The notes beneath the pieces were generated by a model that saw only the letters and a list, made by a program, of their open reading frames with translations, searched no databases and had not been told where the DNA came from. Below, one piece after another: positions 9,896 to 38,721 of a stretch of 64,000 nucleotides of DNA. Numbering within the stretch: position 1 is the stretch's first letter; each line of letters starts with the position of its first letter. A program made the translations under genes and the position numbers. Source of the stretch: Eubacteriales bacterium (GTDB lineage Bacteria > Bacillota > Clostridia > Oscillospirales > CAG-272); assembly GCA_045643285.1 (NCBI GenBank), contig JAZUKN010000014.1, positions 7,772-71,771 on the forward strand, given 5' to 3'.

Positions 9896-9922
9896 TTTTC
9901 GTTCTTCCTTTCGGAAATTCAT

Positions 9923-22663: not shown

Positions 22664-24459
22664 TATTTCTCACCTCCCTCGACTTCTCTTTCAAGCTCTT
22701 GCAGATATACCATTTTCTGATATGTAGGAGAAATCTTCATCAGATTTTCGGGTGTGTCGAATGCTTCGACTTTTCCCTCTGTCAGAACGAGTATCTTGTC
22801 AAAGCCCGAGACTGTCGAAACACGCGAAGCGACGACTATTGTAGTCTTTCCGGCGCGTTTTTCGCGGATATTTTTGAGGATCGTCTCTTCGGTTTTAACA
22901 TCAACTGCCGAAACGGAGTCGTCCATGAGCATAACGGGCGCATCCTTGAGGTATGCTCTTGCGATAGCCACTCTCTGCTTCTGACCGCCGGAGAGGGTGA
23001 CGCCTCTCTCGCCCATGACGGTGTCGTAGCCGTCCGTGAACGCCGTGATGTTGTCGTCAACATCTGCGAAAACTGCGGCGGCGCGGATATCTTCGTCCGT
23101 CGCACCCTCTTTCGAGAACGCGATGTTGCCGCCTACCGTATCCGAGAACAGGAAGTTGTCCTGCGAAACGAGCGCGATGCTGTCTCTGACGGACTTCATC
23201 GTGCAGTCCATTATATCGTGACCGTCAATGAAAACGGTGCCGCGGTCAACGTTATAGAGGCGCATGAGGATCGACATGATAGTCGACTTTCCGGTGCCGA
23301 TACGTCCGACGATGCCGACTGTCTCGCCTGCGTTGATTTTGAACGATACGGCGTCGAGCATTTTCAGTCCTTTTTTCGCAGGGTACTCGAACGTGCAGTT
23401 TCTGAATTCGATCTCGCCGCGGACGGAGTCAAGTGCGACAGCGTCCGGCGCGTCCGTTACGTCTTCTTCGGAATCGAGGAAGGACGAAACACGCTTGAGG
23501 GAGGTGTGTGCGCGGCTGAACATCGTAATAAGCGAGCCGAGCGCAATCATCGGCCATATAAGTGTGTCGAAATATCCGACGAACGTCACAAGCTCACCGG
23601 CAGTGACTTCAATGACGTGACCGAACACGGTGACGGGATTTCCCGAAACGAACGAGTAGACGAACCACGAGCCGAAGCCGAGGATGAACGCCCCGATAAC
23701 GGCGATGATGACTTCGATAAGAACGTCAGATACGACCTGGACGCGGACGAACGAAACGTTTGCGGCGCGGTTTTTCCGTGCGACCTTGCGGAAAGCGTGG
23801 ATCTCGCTTGCCTCTTTGACGAACGCCTTAATTACGCGGATGCCTGTGAAGTTTTCCTGCGTGAAGTCGTAGAGGCGGTCGTATTCTTCCTGACGCTCTT
23901 CCCACTTTTTCGCCATGATCCTTTCAACTATCGCGCCCCAGATTATGATAAGCACCATCGGGATGAGCGCGAACAGGGAAAGAACCCAGTCGAGCATGAT
24001 CATTTTGATAATGACAAGCACGGCAAGGAACGATGAGTCAACGAGCTGAACGACGCCGAAGCCGCAGAAATCGTCTATCGTTTCGAGATCGGTCGTGAAC
24101 CAGGACATGATCGAGCCGACTTTTGTTTCGTGGTAGTAGTTCTGTGAAAGGCGTTCGCTTTTTTTGAACATTTCGCGGCGAAGACCTGCTTCGATCCTCT
24201 GCGATGCGTTGAAAAGGGTATATCTCCACGCCATACGTCCGGCGAACATGACACCGGCGATGATGAGGAGCTTTTTGCAAATATCCTCAACGAACGAAAT
24301 ATCGACAGGCGCGCCTGATGATAGGTGGTCGACTATCGAACCGAGGTATTCCGGCTGAAACAACTGGACGTAGTCGACGGCGACAAGCGCGGCTATGCCG
24401 ATGAGGTAGAAATACCAATATTTCAGATAGTATTTATTGATGTGTTTTCCGAAAAGCAT
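22663..24459 (-). CDS. ABC exporter, fused permease/ATPase (other half of the heterodimer)
   Basis: 598 aa. TMD plus GRIGTGKST, LSGGQKQRVAIAR and VMLMDDSVSAVD. Confidence 0.85.
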   Translation of the reverse strand: MLFGKHINKYYLKYWYFYLIGIAALVAVDYVQLFQPEYLGSIVDHLSSGAPVDISFVEDICKKLLIIAGVMFAGRMAWRYTLFNASQRIEAGLRREMFKKSERLSQNYYHETKVGSIMSWFTTDLETIDDFCGFGVVQLVDSSFLAVLVIIKMIMLDWVLSLFALIPMVLIIIWGAIVERIMAKKWEERQEEYDRLYDFTQENFTGIRVIKAFVKEASEIHAFRKVARKNRAANVSFVRVQVVSDVLIEVIIAVIGAFILGFGSWFVYSFVSGNPVTVFGHVIEVTAGELVTFVGYFDTLIWPMIALGSLITMFSRAHTSLKRVSSFLDSEEDVTDAPDAVALDSVRGEIEFRNCTFEYPAKKGLKMLDAVSFKINAGETVGIVGRIGTGKSTIMSILMRLYNVDRGTVFIDGHDIMDCTMKSVRDSIALVSQDNFLFSDTVGGNIAFSKEGATDEDIRAAAVFADVDDNITAFTDGYDTVMGERGVTLSGGQKQRVAIARAYLKDAPVMLMDDSVSAVDVKTEETILKNIREKRAGKTTIVVASRVSTVSGFDKILVLTEGKVEAFDTPENLMKISPTYQKMVYLQELEREVEGGEK

Positions 24460-24561
24460 AGTTCTCTCTTTTTTTATTGCAAAATTGTTATTTTAATAAT
24501 ACTCTTTATGGGATAAAGATGCCGCAAATCTTACGGCTGTGCGTGAAATCTCTTTTTTATA

Positions 24562-24897
24562 CTGTAGGGCGGGGGCTTGTCTCCCGCCGCCAGATTTGCA
24601 CACACTTCACATAGAAAAAGGTAGAAAATGTCGGGGACGTTTTAAATTATTTTCTTTTGTCCTGCGTATGAAATACGCGGCGGACGGGCGCACATTCAAC
24701 CAAACCTAACGTTTGGCGTCGTTGTGTCCTACGCGGACGGCGGACAAGAGCGTGATTCGACGCTCTTGTCAATCACCGAACCAAAGGGGGAAGGTCGCTT
24801 CGCTCTATTCCCCCTTTGGAAACCCCTTTGTTACAAAGTTTGTGCGACGTTATCGAGGATTTAACCCGTGGGGTAATAGCGCGCTGACGCTCATACG
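24562..24897. repeat. Mosaic hairpin repeat, copy 4 (most complete head-to-tail exemplar)
   Basis: ctgtagggcgggggcttgtctcccgccgccagatttgcaca; gaaaatgtcggggacgtttta; gtcctgcgtatgaaatacgcggcggac; caaacctaacgtttgg; gacaagagcgtgattcgacgctcttgtc; ccaaagggggaagg..ccccctttgg; cccctttgttacaaag; gtgcgacg..gaggattta..taatagcgcgctgacgctcat. Confidence 0.85.
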
Positions 24898-24970
24898 TTT
24901 TTGTATACAAGGTTATAGTGCAGTGAATAGGGGTTTTGTCTTAATTTGCCATTTTTCACTTGCATCTTTC

Positions 24971-25927
24971 TCAGAACGTTACGACTTCTTCTTCGGGTGC
25001 GGTTGCCGGGGCGAGAGACAGTACCTCAAGTGCCGCCAGCTTTCCGCCCGGTTCTTCGCCGTAGATCGACGCATCGACCGACACGACCTTCGCCTTGACG
25101 TAATACCACGCCTTATTCTTGAACGTCATATTGTTCTTGACGTAAATGCTGATGAACTGGATATCGTTCGCACAGCAGGTCATCGCAAAGCGTCCGATAA
25201 GGAATCCGTTTGCGGCGACTGCGCTGATCTGTGCCGCCTGCGCGCGCATCGTCACCGTTTTGCCTTCGTACTTGTCCACGTTATCCATTACGTCAAAGTA
25301 GAACACTCCGAAATCCGCGTCGCTGACGTCTATCTCGTCTTTTGTGAGGTCGAACGGGGAAGCGTCGAACTGAGCGTCCATTGTGCCGTCCTCGTATTCG
25401 TATACGACCTGCACGCGCATATTCACTGCCTTTACCAGACTGCGGTACGCCATTTTCTTCGAGTCGTCCGTAAAACGGTTGAAGATCACTATATCCGAAT
25501 TGCGGAACTGCTCAACGAGCATCGCGCGGAGGTTCTTTGAATAAGCATCGAACGTGGTCGAATCGACGGTCGTCATGATTTCGACGAGCTGCCACCCATC
25601 CGGATATACTATCTCAAGCGGCGCGTTTCCGTCCCACATTCCGTTGTATTCTATCGCCACGATGTCGGGCGCGTATTTCCGCTCAATGTCTTCGTACAGC
25701 GCGGAATTAAAGTCTTCTTCATCCTCGACGGACACGAGCGTGACGTTTTTTTCGCGGAGATTTTTTTCGTCGTATTCTTCGATACCCTCTTCGCAGACGA
25801 TCAGCACGATCTTTCTGCCGCCGCAGATCTGTCTGTTCTCGAAAAAGCGGTTTACCATTACGGTTTTGCCGGATTCAAGCAGTCCGTTGAAGAGGAAAAC
25901 GGGTACTTCTCTCGGTTGTTTTTTCAT
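24971..25927 (-). CDS. G3E/CobW-like P-loop domain lacking the CxCC motif, fused to a DUF1980 (TIGR03943)-like C-terminal domain
   Basis: 318 aa. Walker A FNGLLESGKT, DIVAIEYNG and FNRFTD resemble CobW G-motifs, with no GCxCC. The C-terminal half contains GRFAMTCCANDIQF, the CC-x-x-D hallmark I recall from DUF1980 proteins. Lies 21 nt downstream of the cobW-like gene. Confidence 0.55.
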   Translation of the reverse strand: MKKQPREVPVFLFNGLLESGKTVMVNRFFENRQICGGRKIVLIVCEEGIEEYDEKNLREKNVTLVSVEDEEDFNSALYEDIERKYAPDIVAIEYNGMWDGNAPLEIVYPDGWQLVEIMTTVDSTTFDAYSKNLRAMLVEQFRNSDIVIFNRFTDDSKKMAYRSLVKAVNMRVQVVYEYEDGTMDAQFDASPFDLTKDEIDVSDADFGVFYFDVMDNVDKYEGKTVTMRAQAAQISAVAANGFLIGRFAMTCCANDIQFISIYVKNNMTFKNKAWYYVKAKVVSVDASIYGEEPGGKLAALEVLSLAPATAPEEEVVTF

Positions 25928-25948
25928 ATTATCACACCTTATAAAAAA

Positions 25949-27070
25949 TTACAGTCCGAACAGCTCGCAGAGAGCGTGCTCGTCGAGCTTTGTGCCGATG
26001 ACGCAGAGTCGTCCCGTGTAGTCTGCGGAGCCGTCGCGGATCTCGTATTCGCCGGGCGTGAGGTCGAACTGGAGCCACTTGCCGTCCGTTGTTTCGACGA
26101 TGCCCTTTGCGCGGATGATCACGCCGACGGGGTTTTCTTCCGCCGCGAGGACGGAGAGTGCCTTGTCGAGTGCATCGCGGTCGAACTTCTTCGGGGTTTC
26201 CTTGCCCCAGTTCGTGAAGATTTCGTCCGCGTCGTGACCGTGGTGGTGATGATGGTGGTGATGATGCTCGTGGTGGTGTTCGTCATCATCGTCGTCGTCA
26301 TGGTGGTGGCAGTGGCATTCGTGTTCGTCATCGTCGTCATCATCGTGGTGATGGTGGTGATGATGTTCATGCTCTTCGCCTTCTTCGTCGTGGTGGTGAC
26401 AGCAGCAATCGTCGTCATCATCGTCATCGTGATGAGCGGCGGCTATTGCGGCAAGAAGCTCGGCGGCGAGGGAGTCCTGCTTTTCCATGGCGGTACGCAT
26501 TACGTCGCCGGAGATCTCGTCCCACGGAGTCGTGATGATCGCCGCCTTCGGGTTGTGTTCCTTGATGAGTGCGACTACTGCTTCGAGCTTGTCGTCGGTG
26601 AGCTTTTGTGTGCGGCTCAAAATGATACAGCCGGCGTTTTCGATCTGGTCATTGAAGAATTCGCCGAAGTTCTTCATATACATTTTCGCTTTTGTCGCGT
26701 CGACGACTGCCGTAAAGCTCGACAGTACGGCTTTTCCGTCGGTGTCTGCGCCCTGGGCGGCGTGGATGACGTCGGAGAGCTTGCCGACTCCTGACGGCTC
26801 AATGATGATTCTGTCGGGAGAATATTTTGCGACGACTTCGGCGAGTGCTTCGCGGAAATCGCCTACAAGGGAACAGCAGATACAGCCGGAATTGATCTCG
26901 GACACTTCAATTCCGGCATCTTTCATGAATCCGCCGTCGATGCCTATTTCGCCGAATTCGTTCTCGACGAGGACGAGTTTTTCGCCTGAATAACTTTCGG
27001 CGATGAGTTTTTTGATGAGAGTTGTTTTTCCGGCTCCGAGGAATCCGGAAATGATGTCTATTTTTGTCAT
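25949..27070 (-). CDS. COG0523/CobW-family metallochaperone GTPase with a ~70-aa His/Asp/Cys-rich insert
   Basis: ORF 25949..27259. Start moved to ATG 27070 (GGAGG RBS; MTKIDIISGFLGAGKTTLI). GCICC metal motif. Insert AAHHDDDDDDDCCCHHHDEEGEEHEHHHHHHHDDDDDDEHECHCHHHDDDDDDEHHHEHHHHHHHHHGHD, followed by a CobW_C-like end. Confidence 0.85.
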   Translation of the reverse strand: MTKIDIISGFLGAGKTTLIKKLIAESYSGEKLVLVENEFGEIGIDGGFMKDAGIEVSEINSGCICCSLVGDFREALAEVVAKYSPDRIIIEPSGVGKLSDVIHAAQGADTDGKAVLSSFTAVVDATKAKMYMKNFGEFFNDQIENAGCIILSRTQKLTDDKLEAVVALIKEHNPKAAIITTPWDEISGDVMRTAMEKQDSLAAELLAAIAAAHHDDDDDDDCCCHHHDEEGEEHEHHHHHHHDDDDDDEHECHCHHHDDDDDDEHHHEHHHHHHHHHGHDADEIFTNWGKETPKKFDRDALDKALSVLAAEENPVGVIIRAKGIVETTDGKWLQFDLTPGEYEIRDGSADYTGRLCVIGTKLDEHALCELFGL

Positions 27071-27131
27071 GGTTACGCCTCCGTAAAACCGAAACGGTCT
27101 TTTCTTTTGATGAAAATATTTTAACTTATAC

Positions 27132-27200: not shown

Positions 27201-27227
27201 CAAAATAAAAAGCGCAAACGCGCTTCT
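27201..27227 (-). terminator. Intrinsic terminator closing the NRPS/PP2C-kinase/STAS operon
   Basis: Minus strand, right after the STAS TAA: aagcgc-gttt-gcgctt followed by tttattttg. Short 6-bp GC-rich stem. Confidence 0.5.
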
Positions 27228-27530
27228 TTATTTTTCCGTGATAATGATTTTTTTGTCAAGTCCCGTCAGACGGAAGATACTTGCGATCTCCGTACCGGCG
27301 TTCACCACCGAAAACCATGCGCCGATCTCTTTCGCTTTTCTGTGGCACGCCACGACCTGTCTCAGTCCCGACGACGCTATGTACTCGACTTTGTCAAAAT
27401 CAAGCACTATCGACTTCGCTTCTTCGATCGCGTCGATCTCTTTTCCAAGCTCCGGCGACGATGCCGTATCGAGCCAGCCGTCAAGCGCGAGAGTGATCTT
27501 TCCGTCTTCGTTTGTCTTTGTGATCGTCAT
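27228..27530 (-). CDS. STAS-domain anti-sigma-factor antagonist (RsbV/SpoIIAA-like)
   Basis: 100 aa. LDFDKVEYIASSGLRQVV carries the conserved phosphorylatable Ser context. The ATG overlaps the stop of the upstream phosphatase/kinase gene (ATGA 27527-27530). Confidence 0.8.
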   Translation of the reverse strand: MTITKTNEDGKITLALDGWLDTASSPELGKEIDAIEEAKSIVLDFDKVEYIASSGLRQVVACHRKAKEIGAWFSVVNAGTEIASIFRLTGLDKKIIITEK

Positions 27531-29515
27531 TTTCTGTCACCTCCGAGATATTTTATCATTGTTAAAATGTTTTTGCCGTTCGTGTATTCGTAGTTGATCT
27601 CGTCGACCGCCGAGAACGCGATGAACCGCCCAAGACCGCCCATTTGAACGTCCGGATCGTAGTCCCCTGCTCCGACTCCTTCGCGCGGATCAAACTCTTT
27701 TCCGCCGTCCTCAAAGCGCATCAGTATCCTGTCGGACACCGCGAGACGGAAGCTGATCTTTTCTTTCTCCGCGTCTTTATCTTTGAACGCATACGACACG
27801 ATATTGACGAAGCATTCCTCCGCCGCGAGACACAGCTCAAGCTGTTTCTGTCTCGGAAGCGGAAGCGAAAGTATCGCATCCTTGATTTTATCAAACTCGC
27901 TCTGTTCCACGTCGAGTGACAGTTCCGTCGTGTCCTTTACGGTAAGCGAGAGCATCGTTATGTCGTCGTGCTGTTCACTGCCGTCCGCGAACTCATCGAG
28001 GGCATGGCTGACGTATCCGACAATATCTGGCGCGTGAGACGGGCGGAACGACGAAAGCAGCTCTTCGAGCCGTTTTTCGCCGAAGAAGTGCTTCTCGCTG
28101 TCGGTAGCCTCGGTCACTCCGTCGGTGTAGAGAAGCAGTGTTTCTCCCATTGAGAGCTGCTCGACTGCCGATGTGTATTCCTCTCCCTCAAATAAACCGA
28201 GGATCACTCCGTTTGCCTCAGAAAGAGTGCGGACGTTTTCACCCACGACATAGGGAAGATTGTGTCCGGCGTTCGAGTAGGTGAGCGTCTTCGTGCGGCT
28301 GTCGTAAATGCCGACGAACGCCGTAACGAACAGCATTTCCGTATTGTTTGCGGCAAGCGCGGAGTTCGTTTTTTCGAGTATCTCGTCCGGAGGAAGATTC
28401 ATTTTCGCATACTGATGAATGAGCGTCAGCGTCACCGCCATGAAGATCGACGCGGCGATACCCTTTCCCGACACATCGGCTATCACGGTCAGCACGCGGT
28501 TTTCGTCAAGCGGAACGTAGTCGTATAGGTCGCCTGCGACTTCGTTTGCCGGCTTCATCATCGCCGACAGCTCGTACCGCTCGTATATCGGCCTGCCCGT
28601 CGGCAAAAAACCCTTTTGGATGTTCGCGGCGACATCAAGCTCCGTTTCGCGTCTTTCGCTTTCACGGGTGAGCGCTTCGATATTCCGAAGATAGCTGCCG
28701 ATGTTGTCGCTCATAGTGCCGAACGCATCAGCTATCATTGCAAATTCATCACTTTCGGTTCCGGCAAGCGAGATTTTTTCGCTCTTTCCTCCGGCAGCGA
28801 AGCTCGTCATCGCCTTGCTGAGTTTCTTCGCAGGTACGGATACCTGTCCGCGGATGACGAAATACATACTGATGCCCACGGCGGCGATCACGGCGGCGAG
28901 TGCCAGACCGATGATCAGAAAATACCTGTTTATCTCTCTGTATATTTCGATATTGTCAACGTCCACGCCGACAGATACACGGTTACCGTAGGAATCCTCA
29001 ATGATCGTTTCGGTTATCAGCTCGTGACCGAAAAGCGACTTCGTGACGATATGCGAGAACTGCTTCTTGCCCATCCATAAATTAAGCTCTTCGGTCGTGT
29101 AATTGTTTTCCTTCACAAGACCGACAAAGTGATCGGGGTATTTTTCCTCCATTTCGGGATCTTTGTACGCCGCGCAAACATACTGAAATACGCCTCTATC
29201 CGGGTACGGCACCAGCACGAATGCGTAGTCGATATCGAACCACTCGCACATGAATTCACCGTAAGTCAGCGCGAGATCGTGGTATTCGGGCAAGATCGGC
29301 ATTCCTGCCGTCTCATATTCGCCCTTGATTATGTCGGAGTACATCGTGACAAGCTGTTCGGACGTTTTTTCGGTCTTTCGGCGGATTATGGTCGACACTC
29401 CGAAGTACGACGCGGCAAGAAGCACCGCAAGTGCAGAGAGCAGGATAAGCACAGCCCTCTGCGACACACGCGCGGCTATGGAATTATAGTGTTTTTTCTT
29501 ACTTCCGTCTTTCAT
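27527..29515 (-). CDS. Membrane sensor with HAMP, PP2C (SpoIIE/RsbU-type) phosphatase and RsbW/SpoIIAB-type HATPase kinase domains
   Basis: ORF 27527..29608. Start moved to ATG 29515 (MKDGSKKKHYNS...), which overlaps the NRPS stop. Two TM segments flank a ~190-aa outside domain, then a HAMP-like linker. PP2C core: AANIQKGFLP...AGDLYDY...VIADVSGKGIAASIFM...LLLYTDGVTEA. C-terminal HATPase: AAEECFVNIVSYAF, FEDGGKEFDP, GGLGRFIAFSAVDE. Confidence 0.8.
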   Translation of the reverse strand: MKDGSKKKHYNSIAARVSQRAVLILLSALAVLLAASYFGVSTIIRRKTEKTSEQLVTMYSDIIKGEYETAGMPILPEYHDLALTYGEFMCEWFDIDYAFVLVPYPDRGVFQYVCAAYKDPEMEEKYPDHFVGLVKENNYTTEELNLWMGKKQFSHIVTKSLFGHELITETIIEDSYGNRVSVGVDVDNIEIYREINRYFLIIGLALAAVIAAVGISMYFVIRGQVSVPAKKLSKAMTSFAAGGKSEKISLAGTESDEFAMIADAFGTMSDNIGSYLRNIEALTRESERRETELDVAANIQKGFLPTGRPIYERYELSAMMKPANEVAGDLYDYVPLDENRVLTVIADVSGKGIAASIFMAVTLTLIHQYAKMNLPPDEILEKTNSALAANNTEMLFVTAFVGIYDSRTKTLTYSNAGHNLPYVVGENVRTLSEANGVILGLFEGEEYTSAVEQLSMGETLLLYTDGVTEATDSEKHFFGEKRLEELLSSFRPSHAPDIVGYVSHALDEFADGSEQHDDITMLSLTVKDTTELSLDVEQSEFDKIKDAILSLPLPRQKQLELCLAAEECFVNIVSYAFKDKDAEKEKISFRLAVSDRILMRFEDGGKEFDPREGVGAGDYDPDVQMGGLGRFIAFSAVDEINYEYTNGKNILTMIKYLGGDRK

Positions 29516-32500
29516 TGTTCGTCTCCGAGTTCGTTTATATCGAAATAATCGAGCGTCATTATGCTGTTTATCGCGCGGTCGAGGTATGCGTCGTCGACGA
29601 GCGGCCACGAGAAACCTATCCTGTACAGCACGTTCGTCGTGAAGCGGTTGTCACAGTCGACGGCGTGCGCGTCCTTTATGTCGTATGCCGCAAGTCCGCC
29701 GAGCTTTGCGTTAAATCTGTCGTCGCCGAGCTTTTTACGGAATTCGTCGTAGTATACGTCGTCCTGTTCGGCGATTATCGTGATACCGTTGCGGTTGCAG
29801 GCATCGATGATCTTCATTTCGTCAAATCCGTAGCGGTTGTCGGCGTTGAACGCGGTGAAGCGGTCGTCCACTCCTGCGAGAAGCACGACGGCTCTTGCTG
29901 TGCAGTCGACGGGTGAGAAGCGCATCGGGTCCGTCATGTGGCTGATCGGGTACTTGCCCATTACGGAAAATCCACGGATGCCGGAGAGAAACATATTCGT
30001 CTCAAGGTTTGCCTGGAATTCGCCGTCCCTGTGCCGTCCCATGAGGTTGCCGACTCTTATTACCCGGCCTCTCATACCTCTTTCTATTGCTTCGAACATA
30101 CAAAGCTCCGCATTGTACTTTGAGATAGCGTATTTGTTGTCCATGTCGTCGATCACGAACAGCTCGTTTTCGTGCATTCTTATCTGCTTTTCGTAGCTTT
30201 CGACTGTGTGGATTCCGGGAACGGACACCGTCGAGATCTGCACGAGGCGCGCACCTCTCTTTTCGCAGATCGAAATGAGGTTCTTCACGCCGCCGACGTT
30301 GATCCGTTTAAGAATATCGCTGTCGGAGAAATGCTTTACGCACGCCGCGCAGTTGATAACCGTGTCAAACGGTACGTCGGCGAGTGTATCTCCGAGAGAA
30401 GAATCCGTTATATCGGCTTCGATGAGCGTTATCCTGTCTCTGAGCGCGTCTTCAAATGCGTCGGAGAAGTAGTAGATGAGCATTGTCTTCAGTCTGGCGA
30501 GCGGACTGTCGTATTCCCCTCTGCGGACAAGGCAGTAAATATGTCCTTTTTCGGATTTTATGAGTTCTTCGAGAACGTGTATGCCGAGGAATCCGACCGC
30601 ACCCGTGAGAAGCACGTTTCCGAGCGGCTCTCTCTTCACGTCCGCCGCATATTTTACGGTATTGTATTTCAGTGCGTCGCGCGTCTTTGAAGAGATATTG
30701 CCGTCGGCGGAATCGTCGTCCTGTTTTGCTTTTTTCGCCTTGCCGTCGCGCTCTTCGATGAATCCGGCGAGCATTTCGGGAGTCGGATTGTCGAAAATAT
30801 CGCCGTACTTCACGTCTATCCCGTCGGACATCAGCATCATCGTGACCTTTGACGCGGACAGCGACGTACCGCCGTTCTCGAAGAAGTTGTCGTCGGCGTA
30901 TACTTCGTCAAGCGAAAGGACGGACGAGAATATCTCGCAGAGTCTTTCTTCAAGCGATTTCTTCGCGGCGCGTCTGCCCCTCTTGTCGGCGGATTTCTTT
31001 TTGATGTTCGCAGTTTCCGGAAGTGCTTTTTTGTCGATTTTTCCGTTAGGAGTAAGCGGAATGGCATCAAGCTGCATTATGACAGCCGGCACCATATAGT
31101 ATGTGAGCCGTTCTTTCAGATGCTCCGTGAGCGCGTCGATGTCAGTCGGCTCGGAGGCAGTGAAGAACGCCGCGAGGTAGTCTTCTCCGCCGTTGTTGCG
31201 GACGACGACTTTAGCCTGCTTGACTGTGCCGAAAGAGCAAATCACCTTTTCGATCTCGTCAAGCTCTACTCTGAATCCGCGGAGCTTGACCTGGTTGTCG
31301 AGCCGTCCGGAGAATTCTATTTCCGCGTCTCGGTTCACTCTGACGAGGTCGCCGCTGTGGTACGCCCTCAGTCCGCGAAGCTCGGTAAACGCCGCGGCAG
31401 TCTTTTCGGGCAGCTTCACGTACCCTCGCCCGACTCCTTCTCCGCATATCATAAGCTCACCGGATGCGTACGGCGGAAGTATGTTGCCGTCGGTGTCGGT
31501 CACATAGAATCGGACGTTGCCGGTAGGTCTGCCGATAGTGATACCGTTTCCGGAGTGAAGCTCCTTCATTGAACAGCAAATCGAAGTTTCCGTCGGGCCG
31601 TAACCGTTTACTATCTGTAATTCGGATGAGGTCTTCTTCAGCGAATCGTAAAGCGACGGCGGGAACGCTTCCGCACCGGATACTATCGTTGTAAGTCCGC
31701 GTATCGCCTCTTCAAATTCCTTTACGCTTATCGCGTTGTTGAGGAACGACGGAGTGCAGGTCATAAAGCGGACGTCGTTGTCTTTCATCAACTTTGCGAG
31801 TGCTATCGGGTTGTGTATTTCGTCCTCCGTCGCCATGACGACAGTCTTTCCGCGGTACAGAGCGAGATAAATCTCATACAGCGACATATCGAACGAGATC
31901 GAGCTTACGGCGAGCGACGCACCGCCATCTTTTCCGTCGGTGAAGAATCGGAGGACGAGCTGATCGGTCTCGACGAAGTTCGAGAAGTTCCTGTGCTCGA
32001 TCATAACGCCCTTGGGAGTTCCCGTAGAGCCGGAGGTATAGATGCAGTAAGCGAGCGCGTCCGGCTGAACGTCGACATTCGGGTTCTCGCGGTTGTTGTT
32101 TTCGAGCAGTTCTTCAACGGTCAGCGTTCTGTACGGCTTTGTGTCGGCGAATAGATCGGGTTTTGCGGCTTTGATATTCTCCGTCGTGATGACGAATTTC
32201 GCCGACGCATTCGTGAGGCAGTAGTCTATTCTTTCGTCGGGATAGGACGGTAGCATCGGTAAGAACGCGCCGCCGGATTTTTGCAGACCTATCTCGCATA
32301 TCATGACTTCCTTTGTCCGCTCCAGCACAAGTCCGACTATATCGTCTTTGACGACGCCGAGAGAAACAAGCGAATTTGCGACGGCGTTCGCCTGACTGTT
32401 CAGTTCCCCGAACGTCAGTGATTCGCCTGCGGCGACAACGGCTGTTCTGTCGGGATGAAGAGCGGCTTGTTCTTTGATCACACGGTGTACTCTCTTGCCT

Positions 32501-35500
32501 GTAGTCTTCACGTCGGATGCGTTGAGAACGGAATACGTCTCTTCCGCGTCATGCGACATCATCGAAACCGACGAGAGCTTTTCTGCCGTCATAAAGTTCT
32601 CAGCAACCGCGTCGACCGACGAAATAAGCGACTCAACGAGCCTGCGGCAGAACATATCCCTGCGGTAATCCGCAACGATGACGGGCTTTCCGGCGCGGAT
32701 GTATACGTTCATCGAAATCGGCGACTTTGCGACGGACGGTGCGACGTCGATGACCTCCGCAGTCTTTCCGCAGAGTGAATCAAACGCGAACGTCTCGCCC
32801 TGATATACGAATATTATATCTGATCTTATTCCGTATGCGCCGGACACCTCGGCAAACGATAAGAGGTCGTTCGACATATTGCCGAGAAGCTCAGTCTGAG
32901 TATCGCGGATGAGCTTTTCGGGAGCGTCGCCGCCGTTTATTTTTGCGTAAACGGGGACGGTCTTTACGAGCATCGTGACCGAGCCTGCGAGCCGCGAGTC
33001 ACTGCGTCCGTTGTAGATCGTTGTGAAGACTGTGTCTTCCCTGTGGATGAACCGCGCAAGGACATAAGCGAAAACGGAGTTCCAGAACGAGTTTGCCGTC
33101 ACGCCGTGTTCGCGGCAGTATTTTTTGATCTTTTCGTTGTCGACGGAGCATACTTTCTTTATGCTTCCGGCTTCTTTTTCGACGGTTTCAGGGCATTTTC
33201 CGGGCAGGCATTCCGCGTCCGCGCCTCTGAAAATGCTGTCGTAGTATTCCTTGGCGCGTGCGAGCCGGTCTGTTTTTCTCGCCTGTTCTTCGTCGAGCGC
33301 GGCTTCAAATCCTGTGTATGTTTCTTTTTCGACTTCTTCGCCGACATATGCTTTCGTTATATCCGAGAGGATTATGCTCTCGCTCGTGCCGTCGGAGATG
33401 ATGTGATGAGCGTCGGTGAAGAAGTATTTTCCGCCGTCCGTTTCGTATATTGCGGCTCTGATAAGCGGTTCTCCGAGTAAGTTGAACGGCTTTACAAGCG
33501 CGGAGCTGTCGGGCAGGCAGGCGCACTTTATGACGGGCACTTCGATTTCTGCGCCGTCGTTTCTCTTCGCTCTGACGTTGCCCTCGTTGTCGGTGAAAAG
33601 CACGGTCTTGACGTACGGATGAGCGTCAAGCGCAGTCTTCACGGCAGAGGCGAGCTTTTCGGAATCGACTGACTCGTCGAGCTTTATGAGAAGCGGCATA
33701 TTATAGAGCACGCTGTCGGAATTCGAGAGACATTCAATGAAAATGCCTTTCTGCGTCTCGGTTATCGGGTAGTCGGGGAAAATTTCGTATTCCTCTGCTT
33801 TTTCGGCGGACGAGACGAACTTTTCAAGCAGTCTGACCGTCGGATTTTCTTTTATGTCCGCGATCTTTATAACGCACGGGAACGCTTTCGAGAGCATCAC
33901 GTTGAGCTTCACCGCGCCGATTGACGTAAGTCCTGCGTCGTAAATGTCGCTCTCTATGCCGAACGCCTTGTGTCCGATAACTTCGGCGATTATATCGTAA
34001 ATCTTCTGCTGTGATCCGTTTTCGGGAGCTGTCATATCGGAAGACCGTCTTTCCGGCACGGGAAGAGCGCGGCGGTTGACTTTCTGATTCTGATTCAGCG
34101 GAATCTTATCTATCCTCATCGTGACAGCCGGCACCATGTACGGCGGTTTTTCGGCTCTGATGAAGTCTCCGAGCGCGCGAACGTCGATCTCACCGTCGGA
34201 AACGACGTAAGCCGCGATGAATTTTCCGCCTGCCGGATCGTCGAATGCCGCGACAGTTGCGTCCTTTACGCCGGGAAAACGTCTGACGACCTCTTCGACC
34301 TCCGTAAGCTCCACTCTGAATCCGCGGACTTTGACCTGTGCGTCGCGTCTGCCGACGAATTGGAGATTTCCGTCGCCCATATATCGCACGATGTCGCCGG
34401 TGCGGTATACTCTTTCGTACCCTTCGCAGTCGTCAAACGGATTTGTACCGTATGCTTCTGCGGTCTTTTCAGGTCTGTTGAGATAACCGCGCGTGACGTG
34501 AGGACCTGCTATCCACAGTTCTCCCACTGCGCCGACGGGCAGAAGTGCGCCGCCCTTTCCGACGACGTACGCTTTGAGGTTGTCGACGGCTTTGCCTATC
34601 GGCACGTCTCTGTATCGCCCGTCAAGCGTGAATATCGACGTGATGACTGACCCCTCGGACGGACCGTATGCGTTGTGGAAAGCGAATCCCTCCGGCACGT
34701 CAAGCGGTATCAGCTTTTCTCCTGCCACGGTGAGGTGACGGAGAGTGCTCAGTCCGCCCATTTCGGCAAACTGCCTGCCGACCTGCATCGTCATGACGGT
34801 GTGAGTTATGCCGTTTTTGTTGAAATATTCGGCGAGGGCAGGGAAGTCGAGCCTTATCTCGTCGGAGATGATGTGCAGTTCCGCGCCGGACGTGACTGCC
34901 GGATACATATCGTAAACGTTTGCGTCAAAACCGTAGCTTGCGTAAGCCGCGACGCGCGAATCCGTGCCGATGCCGTAGAATTTCTTTTCCCATTCCGTCG
35001 TGACTACGGTATTTCCATGCTCGAACATAACGCCTTTCGGAACGCCGGTGGAGCCGGATGTGTATATCATCACAAACAGATCGTGCAGTCCGGGTGTCGG
35101 AAGCTGAATGTCCCGGAGCGTAACGTCCGACTCTTCGAGCGAATCAAGCGACGAGAGCGGTATCCTCTGCCCGGTGTACTCTTCTGTTATTATTCCGTCG
35201 AGCGCGTCCGCGTAAATGACAGCCGCCGCACGGGAATCTCCGATCATAAGATTCAGCCTCTCCGGCGGATAAGACGGATCGAGCGGCAAATATGCGCCTC
35301 CTGCCTTGAGTACGGCAAGAGAGCAGATGAGCATATACTCCGATCTCGGGATAAGCACGCCGACGACCTTTTTTCGTCCGATGCCGTTTTTCACGAGATA
35401 TTTTGCTATCGTGTCCGTTATTTCATCGATATAACGGTAGGTGTATCTGTTTTCTTCGTAGACAAGGCAAATTTTGTCGGGCGTTTTCGCCGCCTGCTCG

Positions 35501-38481
35501 CGGAACAGCTCGACGACGGTCTTTTTGTCTTCGTACGGGTATTCCGTTTTGTTGAACAAGTCGATAAGCGCGCGGTTTTCGCCGTCGCAGAGCGGAATAT
35601 CGCCGAGCGAGGACGACGAGAGCATCCCTTTCACGACACCGAGGAACATATTGCAGAACGAACGCACGAGCGACTCGGAGTAGAGCTTCCTGCGGTAATG
35701 CGCCGACAGCTCGTAGCCGTCGGACGTTTTCATCAGCATAACGTCGATGTCGCACTGCAAGTCTCCCGTTTCGAGCATTTCCACGCCGATCCGTCCGTCT
35801 TCGACAGGTGCGCCGTTAAACAGCTCTGCCTGATATATGAACATCGTCTCAGTTCCCACGCCGTATTTTGATGCGAGCGTGCCGAAGTCGATCATGTCGT
35901 GACTCATCGCGCGGTAGAATTTGTCCTGAACGGACGGCAGACAGTCGGATACCGATTCGCTTCCCGTGAAATTGAAGTAAAGCGGCAAGGTCTTCACGAA
36001 CATACCGACGGAGCCTGACAGCCGCGCGTCGTGTCTGCCGTTGTCGACGGTGCAGAAGAGCGCGTCGTCCGTTCCGTTGAATCTGGACAGCGCATAAGCG
36101 AACGCGCCGAGGAAAAGCGTGTTTTCGGTTATCCTGTTCGCTCTTGTGAACGATCTTACTTCGTCGGATGTGAATATCCCGTCACTTGACAGACCAACAC
36201 TTCCGATGCCGTCTGGCGTTTCTTCCGTCACAACGTCGGAGATTATCCGTGAATCGCAGTCGATACCTGCGAGCATTTCGTCAAAGAATTTTTCAGCCGC
36301 GCGGTATGCGTCCGTTTCTTCGCATTCTGCGTCGAGCGCGGAAACATCAAACTGCGTGAGTTCTTCCGGTTTAGGCGCGCATCCCGAATAAACGTCGGCT
36401 ATCTGTTTAATCAGTGCTTCTGCCGACGTGCCGTCGAAAATGATGTGGTGAATGTCGAAAAGCAGAGCCTTGCTCTCTCCGTCCGTGATGACTTCAAACC
36501 GGTAAAGCGGACCGTGTTCAAGATCGAACGGGCGCACGAACGATTTTACTTCGTCTTCAATTGAGCGGACGTTTTTGACTTCCACTTCTACGGAAGTTTT
36601 TTTGTAAATCATCGCCGGTGTGCCGTCAGGTGTACAGACTGTGACGAAGAACGCTTCGTGATTCTCCGCGGCAGTCTTTACGGCGTAGGCGAATCTGTCT
36701 ACGTCTACCGAAGACGGCAGGCGGCAGAGCATAGGGATGTTGTACATCGTCGAATCGGGGTTTTCGGCACATTCGAGGTAAACGCCTTTCTGCGCCTTTG
36801 AGAGCGGCGTTACTTCGGGAATCGTTTCGCTGTGCCGAGCCTTAAGACCGAACGATCCGGAGAGCATATCGGCGACTGCGTGCGGCGTTTTTCCGGCAAG
36901 AACGGTGCTCGGCTCAAGTTCGTCTATCTCTGCGGCGGCGATGAGCTTCAATACCTTTATCGAATCTCCGCCGAGCGCGAAGAAGTCGTCGTAAATACCG
37001 ACTTTTCCGCATTCAAGCACCGCTTCAAATGCCGAACAGAGTTTTTCTTCGCTCTCTGTCGTCGGAGCGGCGTATTCGGCCTTGTAGTCCTCTGCTTTAG
37101 GAGAGGGAAGCGCGGTCTTGTCGAGCTTTCCGCTCAGATTTTTCGGCAGTGCATCCATTTTCACGAAGAAGCGAGGCATCATGTAGTCGGGCAGTTTTGC
37201 CGACAGTGCGGTGCGGACTTCGTTTTCTCTGACCTCCGCGCCATTTTTCAGTGAGTAATACGCGGCGATATACGTCTGTCCCGCGCCGTCTGTAAATGCC
37301 TTGACTGCGGCTGACTCTATCCCGTCGATTCCGCCGATTATAATCTCGATCTCGCCTGTTTCGACGCGCTGACCGTTGATCTTGACCATCCAGTCGCGGC
37401 GGTTGACGAACACGAGATCGCCATTTTCGTTGAAATAGCCGTTGTCGCCCGTGTGAACAGTCGTTGTTCCGTCGGGATTCGGACGCATAGTATAGGCTGT
37501 CTTTTCTTCGTCCTTATAATAGCGCGAATCGAACATACCCGTGATGCAGATCTCTCCCTCTGCACCGTCAGGAAGTGCGTTTCCGTCGTCATCGACTACG
37601 GTGAGCGTGATGCCGTCGAGCGCTTTTCCGAGAGGAGTGTTCGAGTACGTCTTATCCATGACGAATACGGACACAAGGATCGTTTCGCTCATTCCGTAGA
37701 TGTTCAATACGCGGACGTTATCGCGGTACTCGATGTTCGAGAGCCGCTCGCTTCCCGTGATGATGCTGTAGCGTTTGTCCTTTTCAAAGCGGAAGAGCTT
37801 CAATATCTGAGGACTGATAAAGCCCATGTTTATGTCGTTGTCGCGGTAAAATTTTTCGAGCATTACAGCGGACTTTCTCACTTCATCGGGGACGACAAAA
37901 AGCGTCGCTCCGCGAAGATACCACGTCTGGTACTCGAAAATGTGCGCGGCAAAGGAGAACGACGCACACGCCGCCAAGCGGATGTCGTCCACACCGTCGC
38001 CGAAGACAAGCTGTCTCTTTACCGCACGGGCGATGTCGGCTGTGCTTTCAAGTATGCCTTTCGGAGTACCCGTGGAGCCGGAGGTGTATATAAGAATAGC
38101 CGGCTCGCTGCCGTCGGCCGGGTTTTCGTACTGACCGAACGAATCTATATCCGAGAAAAACTCCTCCGTCACCGTCAGCTTTGCGCCGCAGTCGTTTGTT
38201 ATGAAGTTTATTCTTTCCTCGGGATAATCCGGCACAAGCGGAACGATGACCGCACCTGCGCGCAGGATACCGAGATACGCCGCCTGGTATTCGATGACAC
38301 GCGGCATATTTATTGCGACAAAATCACCGTGGCGCACGCCGAGCGAAAAGAGCTTCGCGGCAACCTTTCCCGTCAGTGCGTACAGCTCAGTGTATGTAAG
38401 AGAGTGGGCGCGTCCGTCAACGAGTGCAACCTTGTCGGCGAATTTTCCGACAGCCTCCTTGAAAAGAGAAAAGTAATTCAT
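29512..38481 (-). CDS. Non-ribosomal peptide synthetase, three modules, A-T-C-A-T-C-A-T-R (terminal thioester reductase)
   Basis: 2989 aa single ORF. Three AMP-binding cores (YTSGSTGTPKG, YTSGSTGVPKG, YTSGSTGTPKG). Three carrier sites (GGDSIKV, GLTSIGA, GGTSLSA). Two condensation His motifs (HHIIFDG, HHIISDG). C-terminal SDR with LLTGAVGFLG and YAISK. Confidence 0.92.
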   Translation of the reverse strand: MNYFSLFKEAVGKFADKVALVDGRAHSLTYTELYALTGKVAAKLFSLGVRHGDFVAINMPRVIEYQAAYLGILRAGAVIVPLVPDYPEERINFITNDCGAKLTVTEEFFSDIDSFGQYENPADGSEPAILIYTSGSTGTPKGILESTADIARAVKRQLVFGDGVDDIRLAACASFSFAAHIFEYQTWYLRGATLFVVPDEVRKSAVMLEKFYRDNDINMGFISPQILKLFRFEKDKRYSIITGSERLSNIEYRDNVRVLNIYGMSETILVSVFVMDKTYSNTPLGKALDGITLTVVDDDGNALPDGAEGEICITGMFDSRYYKDEEKTAYTMRPNPDGTTTVHTGDNGYFNENGDLVFVNRRDWMVKINGQRVETGEIEIIIGGIDGIESAAVKAFTDGAGQTYIAAYYSLKNGAEVRENEVRTALSAKLPDYMMPRFFVKMDALPKNLSGKLDKTALPSPKAEDYKAEYAAPTTESEEKLCSAFEAVLECGKVGIYDDFFALGGDSIKVLKLIAAAEIDELEPSTVLAGKTPHAVADMLSGSFGLKARHSETIPEVTPLSKAQKGVYLECAENPDSTMYNIPMLCRLPSSVDVDRFAYAVKTAAENHEAFFVTVCTPDGTPAMIYKKTSVEVEVKNVRSIEDEVKSFVRPFDLEHGPLYRFEVITDGESKALLFDIHHIIFDGTSAEALIKQIADVYSGCAPKPEELTQFDVSALDAECEETDAYRAAEKFFDEMLAGIDCDSRIISDVVTEETPDGIGSVGLSSDGIFTSDEVRSFTRANRITENTLFLGAFAYALSRFNGTDDALFCTVDNGRHDARLSGSVGMFVKTLPLYFNFTGSESVSDCLPSVQDKFYRAMSHDMIDFGTLASKYGVGTETMFIYQAELFNGAPVEDGRIGVEMLETGDLQCDIDVMLMKTSDGYELSAHYRRKLYSESLVRSFCNMFLGVVKGMLSSSSLGDIPLCDGENRALIDLFNKTEYPYEDKKTVVELFREQAAKTPDKICLVYEENRYTYRYIDEITDTIAKYLVKNGIGRKKVVGVLIPRSEYMLICSLAVLKAGGAYLPLDPSYPPERLNLMIGDSRAAAVIYADALDGIITEEYTGQRIPLSSLDSLEESDVTLRDIQLPTPGLHDLFVMIYTSGSTGVPKGVMFEHGNTVVTTEWEKKFYGIGTDSRVAAYASYGFDANVYDMYPAVTSGAELHIISDEIRLDFPALAEYFNKNGITHTVMTMQVGRQFAEMGGLSTLRHLTVAGEKLIPLDVPEGFAFHNAYGPSEGSVITSIFTLDGRYRDVPIGKAVDNLKAYVVGKGGALLPVGAVGELWIAGPHVTRGYLNRPEKTAEAYGTNPFDDCEGYERVYRTGDIVRYMGDGNLQFVGRRDAQVKVRGFRVELTEVEEVVRRFPGVKDATVAAFDDPAGGKFIAAYVVSDGEIDVRALGDFIRAEKPPYMVPAVTMRIDKIPLNQNQKVNRRALPVPERRSSDMTAPENGSQQKIYDIIAEVIGHKAFGIESDIYDAGLTSIGAVKLNVMLSKAFPCVIKIADIKENPTVRLLEKFVSSAEKAEEYEIFPDYPITETQKGIFIECLSNSDSVLYNMPLLIKLDESVDSEKLASAVKTALDAHPYVKTVLFTDNEGNVRAKRNDGAEIEVPVIKCACLPDSSALVKPFNLLGEPLIRAAIYETDGGKYFFTDAHHIISDGTSESIILSDITKAYVGEEVEKETYTGFEAALDEEQARKTDRLARAKEYYDSIFRGADAECLPGKCPETVEKEAGSIKKVCSVDNEKIKKYCREHGVTANSFWNSVFAYVLARFIHREDTVFTTIYNGRSDSRLAGSVTMLVKTVPVYAKINGGDAPEKLIRDTQTELLGNMSNDLLSFAEVSGAYGIRSDIIFVYQGETFAFDSLCGKTAEVIDVAPSVAKSPISMNVYIRAGKPVIVADYRRDMFCRRLVESLISSVDAVAENFMTAEKLSSVSMMSHDAEETYSVLNASDVKTTGKRVHRVIKEQAALHPDRTAVVAAGESLTFGELNSQANAVANSLVSLGVVKDDIVGLVLERTKEVMICEIGLQKSGGAFLPMLPSYPDERIDYCLTNASAKFVITTENIKAAKPDLFADTKPYRTLTVEELLENNNRENPNVDVQPDALAYCIYTSGSTGTPKGVMIEHRNFSNFVETDQLVLRFFTDGKDGGASLAVSSISFDMSLYEIYLALYRGKTVVMATEDEIHNPIALAKLMKDNDVRFMTCTPSFLNNAISVKEFEEAIRGLTTIVSGAEAFPPSLYDSLKKTSSELQIVNGYGPTETSICCSMKELHSGNGITIGRPTGNVRFYVTDTDGNILPPYASGELMICGEGVGRGYVKLPEKTAAAFTELRGLRAYHSGDLVRVNRDAEIEFSGRLDNQVKLRGFRVELDEIEKVICSFGTVKQAKVVVRNNGGEDYLAAFFTASEPTDIDALTEHLKERLTYYMVPAVIMQLDAIPLTPNGKIDKKALPETANIKKKSADKRGRRAAKKSLEERLCEIFSSVLSLDEVYADDNFFENGGTSLSASKVTMMLMSDGIDVKYGDIFDNPTPEMLAGFIEERDGKAKKAKQDDDSADGNISSKTRDALKYNTVKYAADVKREPLGNVLLTGAVGFLGIHVLEELIKSEKGHIYCLVRRGEYDSPLARLKTMLIYYFSDAFEDALRDRITLIEADITDSSLGDTLADVPFDTVINCAACVKHFSDSDILKRINVGGVKNLISICEKRGARLVQISTVSVPGIHTVESYEKQIRMHENELFVIDDMDNKYAISKYNAELCMFEAIERGMRGRVIRVGNLMGRHRDGEFQANLETNMFLSGIRGFSVMGKYPISHMTDPMRFSPVDCTARAVVLLAGVDDRFTAFNADNRYGFDEMKIIDACNRNGITIIAEQDDVYYDEFRKKLGDDRFNAKLGGLAAYDIKDAHAVDCDNRFTTNVLYRIGFSWPLVDDAYLDRAINSIMTLDYFDINELGDEQ
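29515..30640 (-). other. NRPS terminal thioester reductase (R/TD, SDR fold)
   Basis: NAD(P)H-binding LLTGAVGFLGIHVLEEL and YAISKYNAE (YxxxK). About 375 aa at the C-terminus. No thioesterase domain. Confidence 0.8.
30760..30960 (-). other. NRPS carrier domain T3 (Ser codon 30862-30864)
   Basis: NFFENGGTSLSASKV. Confidence 0.7.
31020..32500 (-). other. NRPS adenylation domain A3 (FDMSLYE, Asp235 present)
   Basis: AMP-binding core motifs and NGYGPTE. A10 region PLTPNGKIDKKALP maps to 31021-31070. Confidence 0.7.
32500..33775 (-). other. NRPS condensation domain C2
   Basis: HHIISDG maps to 33388-33408. Confidence 0.7.
33800..34010 (-). other. NRPS carrier domain T2 (Ser codon 33922-33924)
   Basis: IYDAGLTSIGAVKLN. 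Confidence 0.7.
34055..35545 (-). other. NRPS adenylation domain A2 (FDANVYD, Asp235 present)
   Basis: AMP-binding core motifs and NAYGPSE. A10 region IPLNQNQKVNRRALP maps to about 34060-34110. Confidence 0.7.
35560..36815 (-). other. NRPS condensation domain C1
   Basis: HHIIFDG maps to about 36431-36455. Boundaries approximate. Confidence 0.7.
36830..37040 (-). other. NRPS carrier domain T1 (Ser codon 36961-36963)
   Basis: DDFFALGGDSIKVLKL. Boundaries approximate. Confidence 0.75.
37100..38481 (-). other. NRPS adenylation domain A1 (starter; Asp235 position is Ala)
   Basis: A3 motif maps to about 38058-38092 and the A10 Lys region (PKNLSGKLDK) to about 37100-37150. The A4 region reads SFAAHIFE where A2 has GFDANVYD. 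Boundaries approximate. Confidence 0.75.
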
Positions 38482-38517
38482 ATATATACATCCTTTCGGC
38501 TATATTCTTCCGTATAT

Positions 38518-38546
38518 ATTATAACACCTGAATGAGGTTTTGTCCA
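38518..38546 (-). promoter_or_regulatory. Promoter TGGACA-17-TATAAT with extended -10 TG (NRPS operon)
   Basis: Minus strand reads tggacaaaacctcattcaggtgttataat, about 35 nt upstream of the NRPS ATG (38481). Confidence 0.6.
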
Positions 38547-38692: not shown

Positions 38693-38721
38693 TTGACAAA
38701 TCCGCACGCACGTGCTATAAT
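38693..38721 (+). promoter_or_regulatory. Perfect consensus promoter TTGACA-17-TATAAT (alaS)
   Basis: ttgacaaatccgcacgcacgtgctataat. Leaves a leader of only about 40 nt. Confidence 0.7.

Follow-up and report, generated by a model that had tools for sequence, protein, structure and literature searches.

Gene organization of the NRPS operon

We describe here a gene unit from contig JAZUKN010000014.1 (assembly GCA_045643285.1) of an Eubacteriales bacterium, in which a nonribosomal peptide synthetase (NRPS) gene is followed by genes for a predicted membrane-bound sensor phosphatase/kinase and a STAS protein. All coordinates refer to the stretch of DNA that was analysed, a 64-kb window (64,000 nt), and the unit occupies its minus strand from 38546 to 27201; features below lie on the minus strand unless another strand is given. 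The three open reading frames (ORFs) encode the NRPS (38481–29512, 2,989 aa), the sensor phosphatase/kinase fusion (29515–27527, 662 aa) and the STAS protein (27530–27228, 100 aa, stop codon at 27228–27230). These genes, together with two ATGA overlaps, a promoter and a hairpin behind the STAS gene, had been marked in an annotation made from the DNA letters alone (the original prediction), and all of them are present at the positions it gave.

The TGA of the NRPS gene shares bases with the ATG of the fusion gene (ATGA, 29515–29512), and the TGA of the fusion gene shares bases with the ATG of the STAS gene (ATGA, 27530–27527). Each start is preceded by a Shine–Dalgarno sequence: AAAGGA ~10 nt ahead of the NRPS ATG at 38481, GGAGA 7 bases 5′ of 29515, and GGAGGTG 7 bases 5′ of 27530. 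A sigma-A-type promoter with an extended −10 element (38518–38546, TGGACA-17-TGtTATAAT, 11/12 consensus matches) lies ~35 nt 5′ of the NRPS start. Immediately 3′ of the STAS stop codon is an intrinsic-terminator-like hairpin with a T run (27201–27228; 9-bp stem, GUUU loop, −11.4 kcal/mol, z −1.9). Pattern scans for promoters and terminators overall gave no enrichment above shuffled sequences, so that it is the position of these two elements, rather than their statistics, that makes them convincing. Read from its layout, the gene set shows itself as one predicted transcription unit. No riboswitch or leader within the operon was found in Rfam, and the GC content of the window is uniform (~52%), with no sign of a recent island.

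The NRPS and its predicted product

The NRPS has the domain order A-T-C-A-T-C-A-T-R, where A, T, C and R are adenylation, carrier, condensation and thioester reductase domains (Pfam AMP-binding ×3, PP-binding ×3, Condensation ×2 and NAD_binding_4). The carrier serines fall in the motifs GGDSI at residue 504, GLTSI at 1517 and GGTSL at 2537. The terminal R domain (29887–30609, residues 2625–2865, NAD_binding_4, E 8e-34) is placed after the last of these carrier domains, and the R region is 59–81% identical across the related loci described below.

Amino-acid-activating A domains carry a motif of the type SFSFDASVWE, in which Asp235 of the Stachelhaus code binds the α-amino group of the substrate. 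The loading A domain of the window NRPS reads SFSFAAHIFE (37933–37962, residues 174–183), with Ala in place of this Asp, and the second and third A domains (FDANVYD and FDMSLYE) retain it. The absence of Asp235 from the loading domain suggests a non-amino-acid starter unit, and from the R domain the product is expected to be released as an aldehyde. Taken together, these two features therefore predict an N-capped dipeptide aldehyde.

The highest-scoring NCBIfam model for the NRPS is that of the aureusimine synthetase AusA (1305.6 bits), which stays under its 2500 cut-off. The equivalog level is thus not reached, and AusA has the order A-T-C-A-T-R, the window NRPS having an extra A-T-C loading module. 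Among the related loci, the NRPSs of L083 and L174 have the same architecture as that of the window, and those of L173, L175 and L169 begin with a condensation domain, suggesting that acylation there comes from another source.

The sensor phosphatase/kinase fusion and its STAS partner

The ATG start of the fusion gene is backed by homologues that are likewise 662 aa long, and a database cluster 97% identical to the fusion protein exists, although no exact match was found. Hydropathy analysis places two transmembrane (TM) helices at residues 20–44 (29384–29458) and 197–222 (28850–28927). The segment between them (residues 45–196, 28928–29383) is assigned to the outside of the cell by the positive-inside rule. 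The original prediction had described a protein with two TM helices around an external domain of ~190 aa, a SpoIIE/PP2C core and an RsbW-type HATPase; this anatomy stands except for the external domain, which is shorter, at ~150 aa. It is also the fastest-diverging part of the protein, being 29–59% identical in clade I and without a match in clade II.

On the cytoplasmic side of the second helix is a HAMP-like linker (28700–28855, residues 221–272), followed by a SpoIIE-family PP2C domain (27938–28507, residues 337–526, Pfam SpoIIE E 4e-49) and a C-terminal RsbW/SpoIIAB-type serine kinase domain (27551–27853, residues 555–655, HATPase_c_2, E 5e-10). The Pfam search that had been proposed as a check therefore returns SpoIIE, HATPase_c_2 and, for the third gene, STAS, but the linker can only be called HAMP-like, since it scores 21.8 bits under a cut-off of 25 bits. 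The corresponding segment is modelled as a helix-loop-helix, and in homologues HAMP does score above the Pfam threshold. No Response_reg match was found in the fusion with Pfam, its input consisting of the two TM helices, the outside domain and the HAMP-like linker.

The catalytic motifs of both enzymatic domains are present. The PP2C metal-binding motifs are GDLYD (328–332), ADVSGKG (346–352), TDG (464–466) and DD (517–518), and the kinase boxes are the N box AAEECFVNIVSYAF (EE..N), G1 FEDGG and G2 GGLG, which align with those of RsbW and SpoIIAB. In an alignment of 33 homologues (39–69% identity), D329, D347, D465, D517 and D518 of the phosphatase and E566, E567, N571, G605, G626, G627 and G629 of the kinase are invariant. 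In NCBIfam the kinase gives weak RsbW matches, and the top match for the whole fusion is the SiaA model NF038263, with 67.2 bits against an unreached cut-off of 700.

An AlphaFold2 model of the fusion, built with the 33 homologues, has a mean predicted local distance difference test (pLDDT) score of 82. In the PDB it best matches the RsbU and RsbW domains of Rv1364c (3ke6, E 6e-20), followed by RssB and SiaA of Pseudomonas aeruginosa, in a search that for the whole model was dominated by PP2C matches. The outside domain is modelled as a helix followed by an α/β unit of five or six strands, an order of elements that resembles PDC/Cache sensors and makes this a candidate fold.

The 100-aa protein consists of a single STAS domain (Pfam, E 2e-13). 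Its Ser53 (27372–27374) aligns with the phosphorylated serines Ser58 of SpoIIAA and Ser56 of RsbV, and this column is Ser in 17/17 STAS proteins from the clusters studied here. Searches with a local hidden Markov model (HMM) found neither another STAS domain nor another kinase domain of this type in the window. As judged by motifs, the predicted phosphatase, kinase and antagonist thus make up a complete partner-switching set with all three parts intact, as had been proposed.

Genomic association of the module with NRPS genes

The fusion has thousands of relatives, and the best 120 are nearly all ~650-aa SpoIIE and HATPase_c_2 proteins from gut and rumen assemblies. Six homologues with 41–59% identity, picked by the length of their contigs and without regard to gene context, were mapped in their genomes. 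An R-terminated NRPS lies upstream in 5/6, with the order NRPS-(PPTase)-fusion-STAS, where PPTase is a phosphopantetheinyl transferase gene. The NRPS is immediately upstream for P0003 (59% identity, L081/L082) and P0092 (41%, L175); it is separated from the fusion by an 84-aa ORF for P0015 (47%, L083) and by the PPTase gene for P0034 and P0046 (both 46%, L173 and L174). The sixth homologue, P0021 (48%, L084), is located beside pyruvate kinase with no NRPS. In all six loci the STAS gene immediately follows the fusion gene, and the flanks are mutually unrelated. A search started from the reductase region of the NRPS led to the same arrangement, NRPS-PPTase-fusion-STAS, in a metagenome-assembled genome from horse faeces (L086). 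The stop/start overlap between the fusion and STAS genes recurs in L081, L083, L086, L173 and L174.

A larger sample was obtained by scanning Joint Genome Institute (JGI) metagenomes with kinase-domain motifs, which gave 80 loci. Nineteen of these were informative, meaning that at least 8 kb was available and that the kinase domain was at least 36% identical. An NRPS is present in the fetched flank of 11 of the 19, compared with 0/83 control loci (Fisher p = 4e-10), and in a twelfth informative locus (L092) part of an NRPS is found at the edge of the contig. The controls comprise 63 loci from a genome scan with generic PP2C motifs (from 80 among the matches listed) and 20 loci with more distant kinase domains; the PP2C proteins from the generic scan are 27–50% identical among the matches listed.

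In a neighbour-joining tree of the PP2C and kinase region, the proteins group by cluster architecture. The unlinked L084 protein nests inside the linked clade, beside the window protein, as is expected for secondary separation from an NRPS. The linkage persists across altered gene order, flanks and NRPS module number: L093 and L101, for instance, have the order fusion-STAS-PPTase-NRPS. In L097 the PPTase-fusion-STAS set is kept though no NRPS is within reach. Two loci hold decaying copies. In L087 (9974–11584) a PPTase gene follows a 536-aa ORF pieced together from condensation, adenylation and reductase segments, which are 47–85% identical to pieces of the window NRPS; in L089 (5300–10411) the NRPS is reduced to 1,033 aa and the fusion gene is broken into three ORFs.

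The co-occurrence test that had been suggested for this locus thus comes out in favour of an association, fusion homologues mostly adjoining R-terminated NRPSs across genomes, flanks and gene orders. A functional tie of the module (the fusion and STAS genes) to the NRPS is well supported by this comparative genomics, and we regard the module as a real and conserved predicted phospho-switch dedicated to an NRPS cluster of anaerobic gut and rumen Firmicutes.

Two further gene types were observed at these loci. In L174 a gene for a chagasin-type cysteine-peptidase inhibitor (Pfam Inhibitor_I42, 12352–12756) stands immediately after the STAS gene. An alkyl-sulfatase-like metallo-β-lactamase (Lactamase_B, Alkyl_sulf_dimr and Alkyl_sulf_C) accounts for 4 of the 113 ORFs other than NRPS genes in 13 NRPS-linked metagenome loci; taking the 631-aa ORFs that precede the module in L093 (2372–4267) and L101 (1757–3652) to be members of this family is a guess from their size.

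MATE pumps with an RsbW-like domain in a sister clade

In a sister clade, which is frequent in Ruminococcus, an extra gene lies between the NRPS and the fusion (L102, L104, L158, L169–L171 and L172). It encodes a MATE pump of ~585–604 aa whose final ~130 residues are a HATPase_c_2 domain, here called MatE-K. In an operon of Ruminococcus sp. (17 contigs, L169–L171), the genes encode a STAS protein, an NRPS (C-A-T-C-A-T-R), a MatE-kinase protein and a HAMP-PP2C-kinase protein. MatE-K genes were located in L102 (4979–6787), L104 (6566–8380), L158 (6631–8391), L116 (11987–13747), L169 (10001–11755) and L172 (10001–11755), and on the minus strand in L098 (12102–13916) and L092 (8448–10214). The 120 best database relatives of the pump all contain MatE, and all but two also contain HATPase_c_2; they are named 'MATE family efflux transporter' or 'ATP-binding protein'.

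A structural model of MatE-K has the 12-helix MATE fold with a C-terminal α/β domain. The kinase-like domain retains EE..N of the N box and DDG of G1, while only a single Gly is left of G2 and the lid before it is shorter. It may thus be a docking domain, probably non-catalytic, as far as a phylogenetically shallow sample indicates. No paper pairing MATE pumps with RsbW or SpoIIAB domains was found in a literature search, and the presence of an RsbW-like domain within the MATE pump itself suggests a form of efflux-pump regulation that is as yet undescribed.

The arrangement of the parts varies. In L103 and L116 stand-alone kinase genes take the place of the fusion. In L098 a hybrid histidine kinase that combines a dCache sensor with receivers (6957–10354) is followed by a stand-alone RsbW-like kinase, convergent with a MatE-K pump and an NRPS, and there is no STAS or PP2C within 20 kb. 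In L088 a 560-aa MatE protein (1592–3274) comes after a related NRPS, whose reductase region is 59% identical. This MatE protein has a C-terminal extension that can be aligned with the kinase-like domain of the L116 pump but is without the N-box motif, which has been lost, and there is no PP2C or STAS within 8 kb. Elsewhere MatE, in some cases with the kinase-like domain, adjoins PP2C-kinase and STAS genes where an NRPS is absent (L004, L009, L016, L050, L054, L059, L079 and L126), and the pairing of pump and phospho-switch may be broader than the NRPS context.

Other features of the window

Downstream of the operon (20897–27100, minus strand) are genes for two CobW-like GTPases, the second with DUF1980_C, and two ABC exporter genes. 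They were considered as part of the operon and ruled out: they lie past the operon terminator, are preceded by a promoter-like site of their own (TTGCAT-17-TAGAAT, ~27160–27125), and are not conserved in L081, L083, L086 or L173–L175.

Upstream, the NRPS gene is divergent from alaS. In the intergenic region, a hairpin with a perfect 9-bp stem and a T run (38680–38660, minus strand) lies upstream of the NRPS promoter. A plus-strand promoter with 12/12 consensus matches (38693–38721) stops 4 nt short of the ATG listed for alaS (38725), a spacing so short that either the alaS start or the promoter call is doubtful. The sole sigma factor of the window is of the extracytoplasmic function (ECF) type (42833–43465) and is encoded 4.3 kb upstream of the NRPS start, past the divergent alaS. 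It was ruled out as a target of the switch on account of this position and because no ECF sigma factor recurs in the related loci. The original prediction had given it an anti-sigma partner of its own, which is at most a putative one, the partner gene having no Pfam match. Further away, a Gut-1 RNA (Rfam RF01706, 63346–63418, minus strand) scores 53.4 bits, above the gathering score, in keeping with DNA of gut origin.

Proposed output of the switch

We hypothesize that the module is a cluster-dedicated switch with an output other than a sigma factor, probably at the export step, and would put the probability of this reading at about 0.5, with a lower one for any specific target. By default the fused kinase would keep the STAS protein phosphorylated on Ser53. 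An external cue at the outside domain, relayed through the HAMP-like linker, would tip the balance towards the PP2C phosphatase, and the unphosphorylated STAS protein would then bind a pathway protein, not a sigma factor, acting post-translationally and in step with expression of the NRPS. The likeliest kind of target would be the product exporter; an exporter is preferred over a sigma factor because the operon MATE pump of the sister clade bears an RsbW-like domain of its own. A more explicit version, which we put forward tentatively, is a partner switch with a transport output, in which the phosphorylation state of the STAS protein would gate the MATE pump through its RsbW-like docking domain, and in the pump-less window would act on the assembly line or a distant pump.

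Several observations weigh against a cluster-dedicated switch that acts at the export step. The 64-kb window contains no MatE gene (tblastn with seven MatE-K proteins), no second kinase domain and no PPTase gene, and the entire window-type clade (L081, L083, L086, L090 and L173–L175) is without an exporter in the operon. The kinase-like domain of the pump could itself be an anti-sigma domain, and in 8 of the 19 informative metagenome loci the fetched flank contains no NRPS, which makes the link a frequent and not a universal one. With no pump in the operon, and no MatE, second kinase domain or second STAS in the window, the target at this locus is out of sight. The window clade would have lost, or never had, an operon pump, and the target would lie elsewhere in the genome or be the assembly line itself; for the window locus it could be a pump encoded elsewhere, the NRPS or the PPTase, or a sigma factor.

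The last of these would amount to a classical partner switch, in which the fusion kinase is an anti-sigma factor holding a distant sigma factor that dephosphorylated STAS displaces, with transcription of a regulon that possibly includes the biosynthetic genes. The kinase domain is RsbW-like, with all boxes intact and weak RsbW matches in NCBIfam, and Rv1364c, the best structural match, belongs to the sigma-F network. The kinase domains of HsbR and CrsR, in which PP2C also precedes the kinase, bind RpoS encoded elsewhere (PMC6482189), which counts further against a non-sigma output in the window. The original prediction had concluded from the operon alone that the module is sigma-less; the HsbR/CrsR precedent makes that step unsafe. 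The operon itself is without a sigma gene, and none recurs across the related loci, which number more than 20. No alternative sigma factor is annotated within 10 kb in L081–L086 or L169–L175, and among the 113 non-NRPS ORFs of the 13 linked metagenome loci no sigma-factor family occurs more than once, the recurrent families being HATPase_c_2 (19), SpoIIE (11), STAS (11), MatE (8) and the alkyl-sulfatase-like metallo-β-lactamase (4). The operon is moreover driven by a sigma-A-type promoter, the sister clade carries its second kinase domain on an exporter, and the gene set also surrounds an NRPS of the archaeon Methanobrevibacter ruminantium (PMC2812497), although the archaeal copies might be non-functional. 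A distant sigma factor is on this balance rather unlikely, and a sigma-less output is likely but unproven.

Alternatively, unphosphorylated STAS could bind the NRPS or the PPTase and switch synthesis or release on and off, the exporter clade being a separate elaboration. The NRPS, and often the PPTase, are the only conserved neighbours of the module in the window clade; L097 keeps PPTase-fusion-STAS with no NRPS in reach, and the stop/start overlaps suggest fixed stoichiometry. We nevertheless think direct control of the assembly line improbable, since no case of STAS-NRPS binding is known, these NRPSs carry no extra receiver-capable domain in Pfam searches, and the MATE-kinase fusions offer a more concrete docking site. 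Least probable of all, in our judgement, is that the module serves as a general sensor of the envelope or of nutrients and merely shares the operon, as a regulatory hitch-hiker or through joint horizontal transfer. PP2C-kinase fusions with STAS are very common without an NRPS in gut Clostridia, Bacteroidales and Spirochaetes, and the L084 protein, 48% identical overall, is encoded beside pyruvate kinase; yet this protein nests within the linked clade, and an unrelated output is hard to reconcile with a linkage that outlasts changes in order, flanks and module number and has no counterpart in the 83 controls.

If the more explicit version with a transport output is correct, an external cue would be required for a reactive peptide aldehyde to be made or released. 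Efflux pumps would then be controlled in a new mode, and the widespread gut NRPS clusters would have their first defined trigger logic. A conserved outside-domain sensor encoded within these operons offers a concrete way into the regulation of gut peptide-aldehyde clusters. It makes two questions testable, namely what triggers such clusters and whether STAS phospho-switches gate efflux pumps.

Relation to known systems

The closest described gene neighbourhood is mru0066–mru0071 of M. ruminantium M1 (Leahy et al. 2010, PMC2812497), in which genes for serine phosphatases, a STAS-type anti-sigma factor antagonist and a MatE pump flank that of an NRPS. From annotation only, Leahy et al. suggested that these genes sense the environment, regulate the NRPS and serve in export, and that they are of bacterial origin (PMC2812497). 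The suggestion in the original prediction that no NRPS cluster with such a module had been described is thus contradicted by a gene set listed in 2010 (PMC2812497). This region has the same parts as the Ruminococcus operon (L169–L171) and shares with the window the STAS and PP2C genes adjoining the NRPS, the window being without MatE. The archaeal NRPS is described as thioesterase-ended, whereas that of the window is reductase-ended, and neither the phosphatase-fused kinase nor the kinase-like domain on MatE is noted in the account of the archaeal region. No experimental or comparative study of an NRPS-STAS-PP2C-MatE neighbourhood was found, although figures in Guo 2017 and in Schneider and Balskus 2018 may show such genes. 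Literature searches combining NRPS with anti-sigma antagonist or SpoIIE returned only unrelated Streptomyces and Bacillus genome papers, and neither NRPSs nor efflux come up in a 2021 review of STAS-only proteins (PMC8256260).

Fusions of PP2C and kinase domains are already established through Rv1364c and HsbR. Rv1364c of Mycobacterium tuberculosis (3ke6) resembles the window fusion in having an RsbU-type PP2C and an RsbW-type kinase on one chain. It is a cytoplasmic protein of the sigma-F network with a PAS sensor, and its STAS domain is fused in the same chain. HsbR/HsbA of P. aeruginosa and CrsR/CrsA of Shewanella oneidensis are also similar, with a receiver (REC)-PP2C-kinase protein and a separate STAS substrate (PMC6482189). 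Their input, however, is a receiver fed by a phosphorelay, in place of the two TM helices, outside domain and HAMP-like linker of the window fusion, and their outputs are RpoS, FlgM and a diguanylate cyclase, with no link to a biosynthetic cluster.

Partner switches with outputs other than a sigma factor are well established (SypE/SypA, HsbR/HsbA, SiaABCD and BtrUVW). SypE/SypA of Vibrio fischeri is like the window system in that the STAS protein belongs to a biosynthetic locus and has its phosphorylation state set by one protein that is both kinase and phosphatase (PMC8256260, PMC12826045), and unphosphorylated SypA acts on an unknown non-sigma target (PMC8256260). SypE differs in its kinase-REC-PP2C order and cytoplasmic location, and the locus makes a polysaccharide, not a peptide. 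SiaA of P. aeruginosa resembles the fusion as a membrane HAMP-PP2C protein with a matching fold (6k4e) in a non-sigma phospho-switch. SiaABCD differs in having its kinase as a separate protein, a switch protein that is no classical STAS and a diguanylate cyclase output, as is described in part in passages of PMC7647112.

For the transport step, passages of PMC7367683 describe MlaB of Escherichia coli, a single-domain STAS protein that binds and regulates the ABC transporter ATPase MlaF. The target is an ABC ATPase and not an RsbW-domain MATE pump, and no phosphorylation cycle is involved. MlaB-MlaF is thus a precedent for control of a transporter by a STAS protein, as SypA is for a STAS protein of a biosynthetic locus with a non-sigma target. 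Related regulators have also been connected to natural product formation: a four-gene partner-switching system affecting scytonemin production has been described in Nostoc, and in Vogesella indigoidine, a pigment made by an NRPS, is under the control of an RsbW-like response regulator (PMC12826045).

On the biosynthetic side, reductase-terminated NRPS clusters are a prominent class in gut Clostridia, and no study on the regulation of such gut clusters was found. Passages of PMC12327764 report that gut reductase-ended NRPSs release peptide aldehydes that inhibit proteases and that, for ruminopeptin, the predicted products could not be isolated by culturing or by in vitro biochemistry. The NRPSs for AusA in Staphylococcus, for the gut Clostridia family (Guo et al. 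2017) and for ruminopeptin in Ruminococcus bromii are, like that of the window, short and reductase-terminated. The window enzyme differs from AusA and from the gut dipeptide-aldehyde and pyrazinone NRPSs in its additional loading module, the A domain of which is without Asp235. The window represents one clade of a wider unstudied family, its form being an operon of three genes joined by overlaps that encodes a bifunctional enzyme sensing the outside but lacks a pump.

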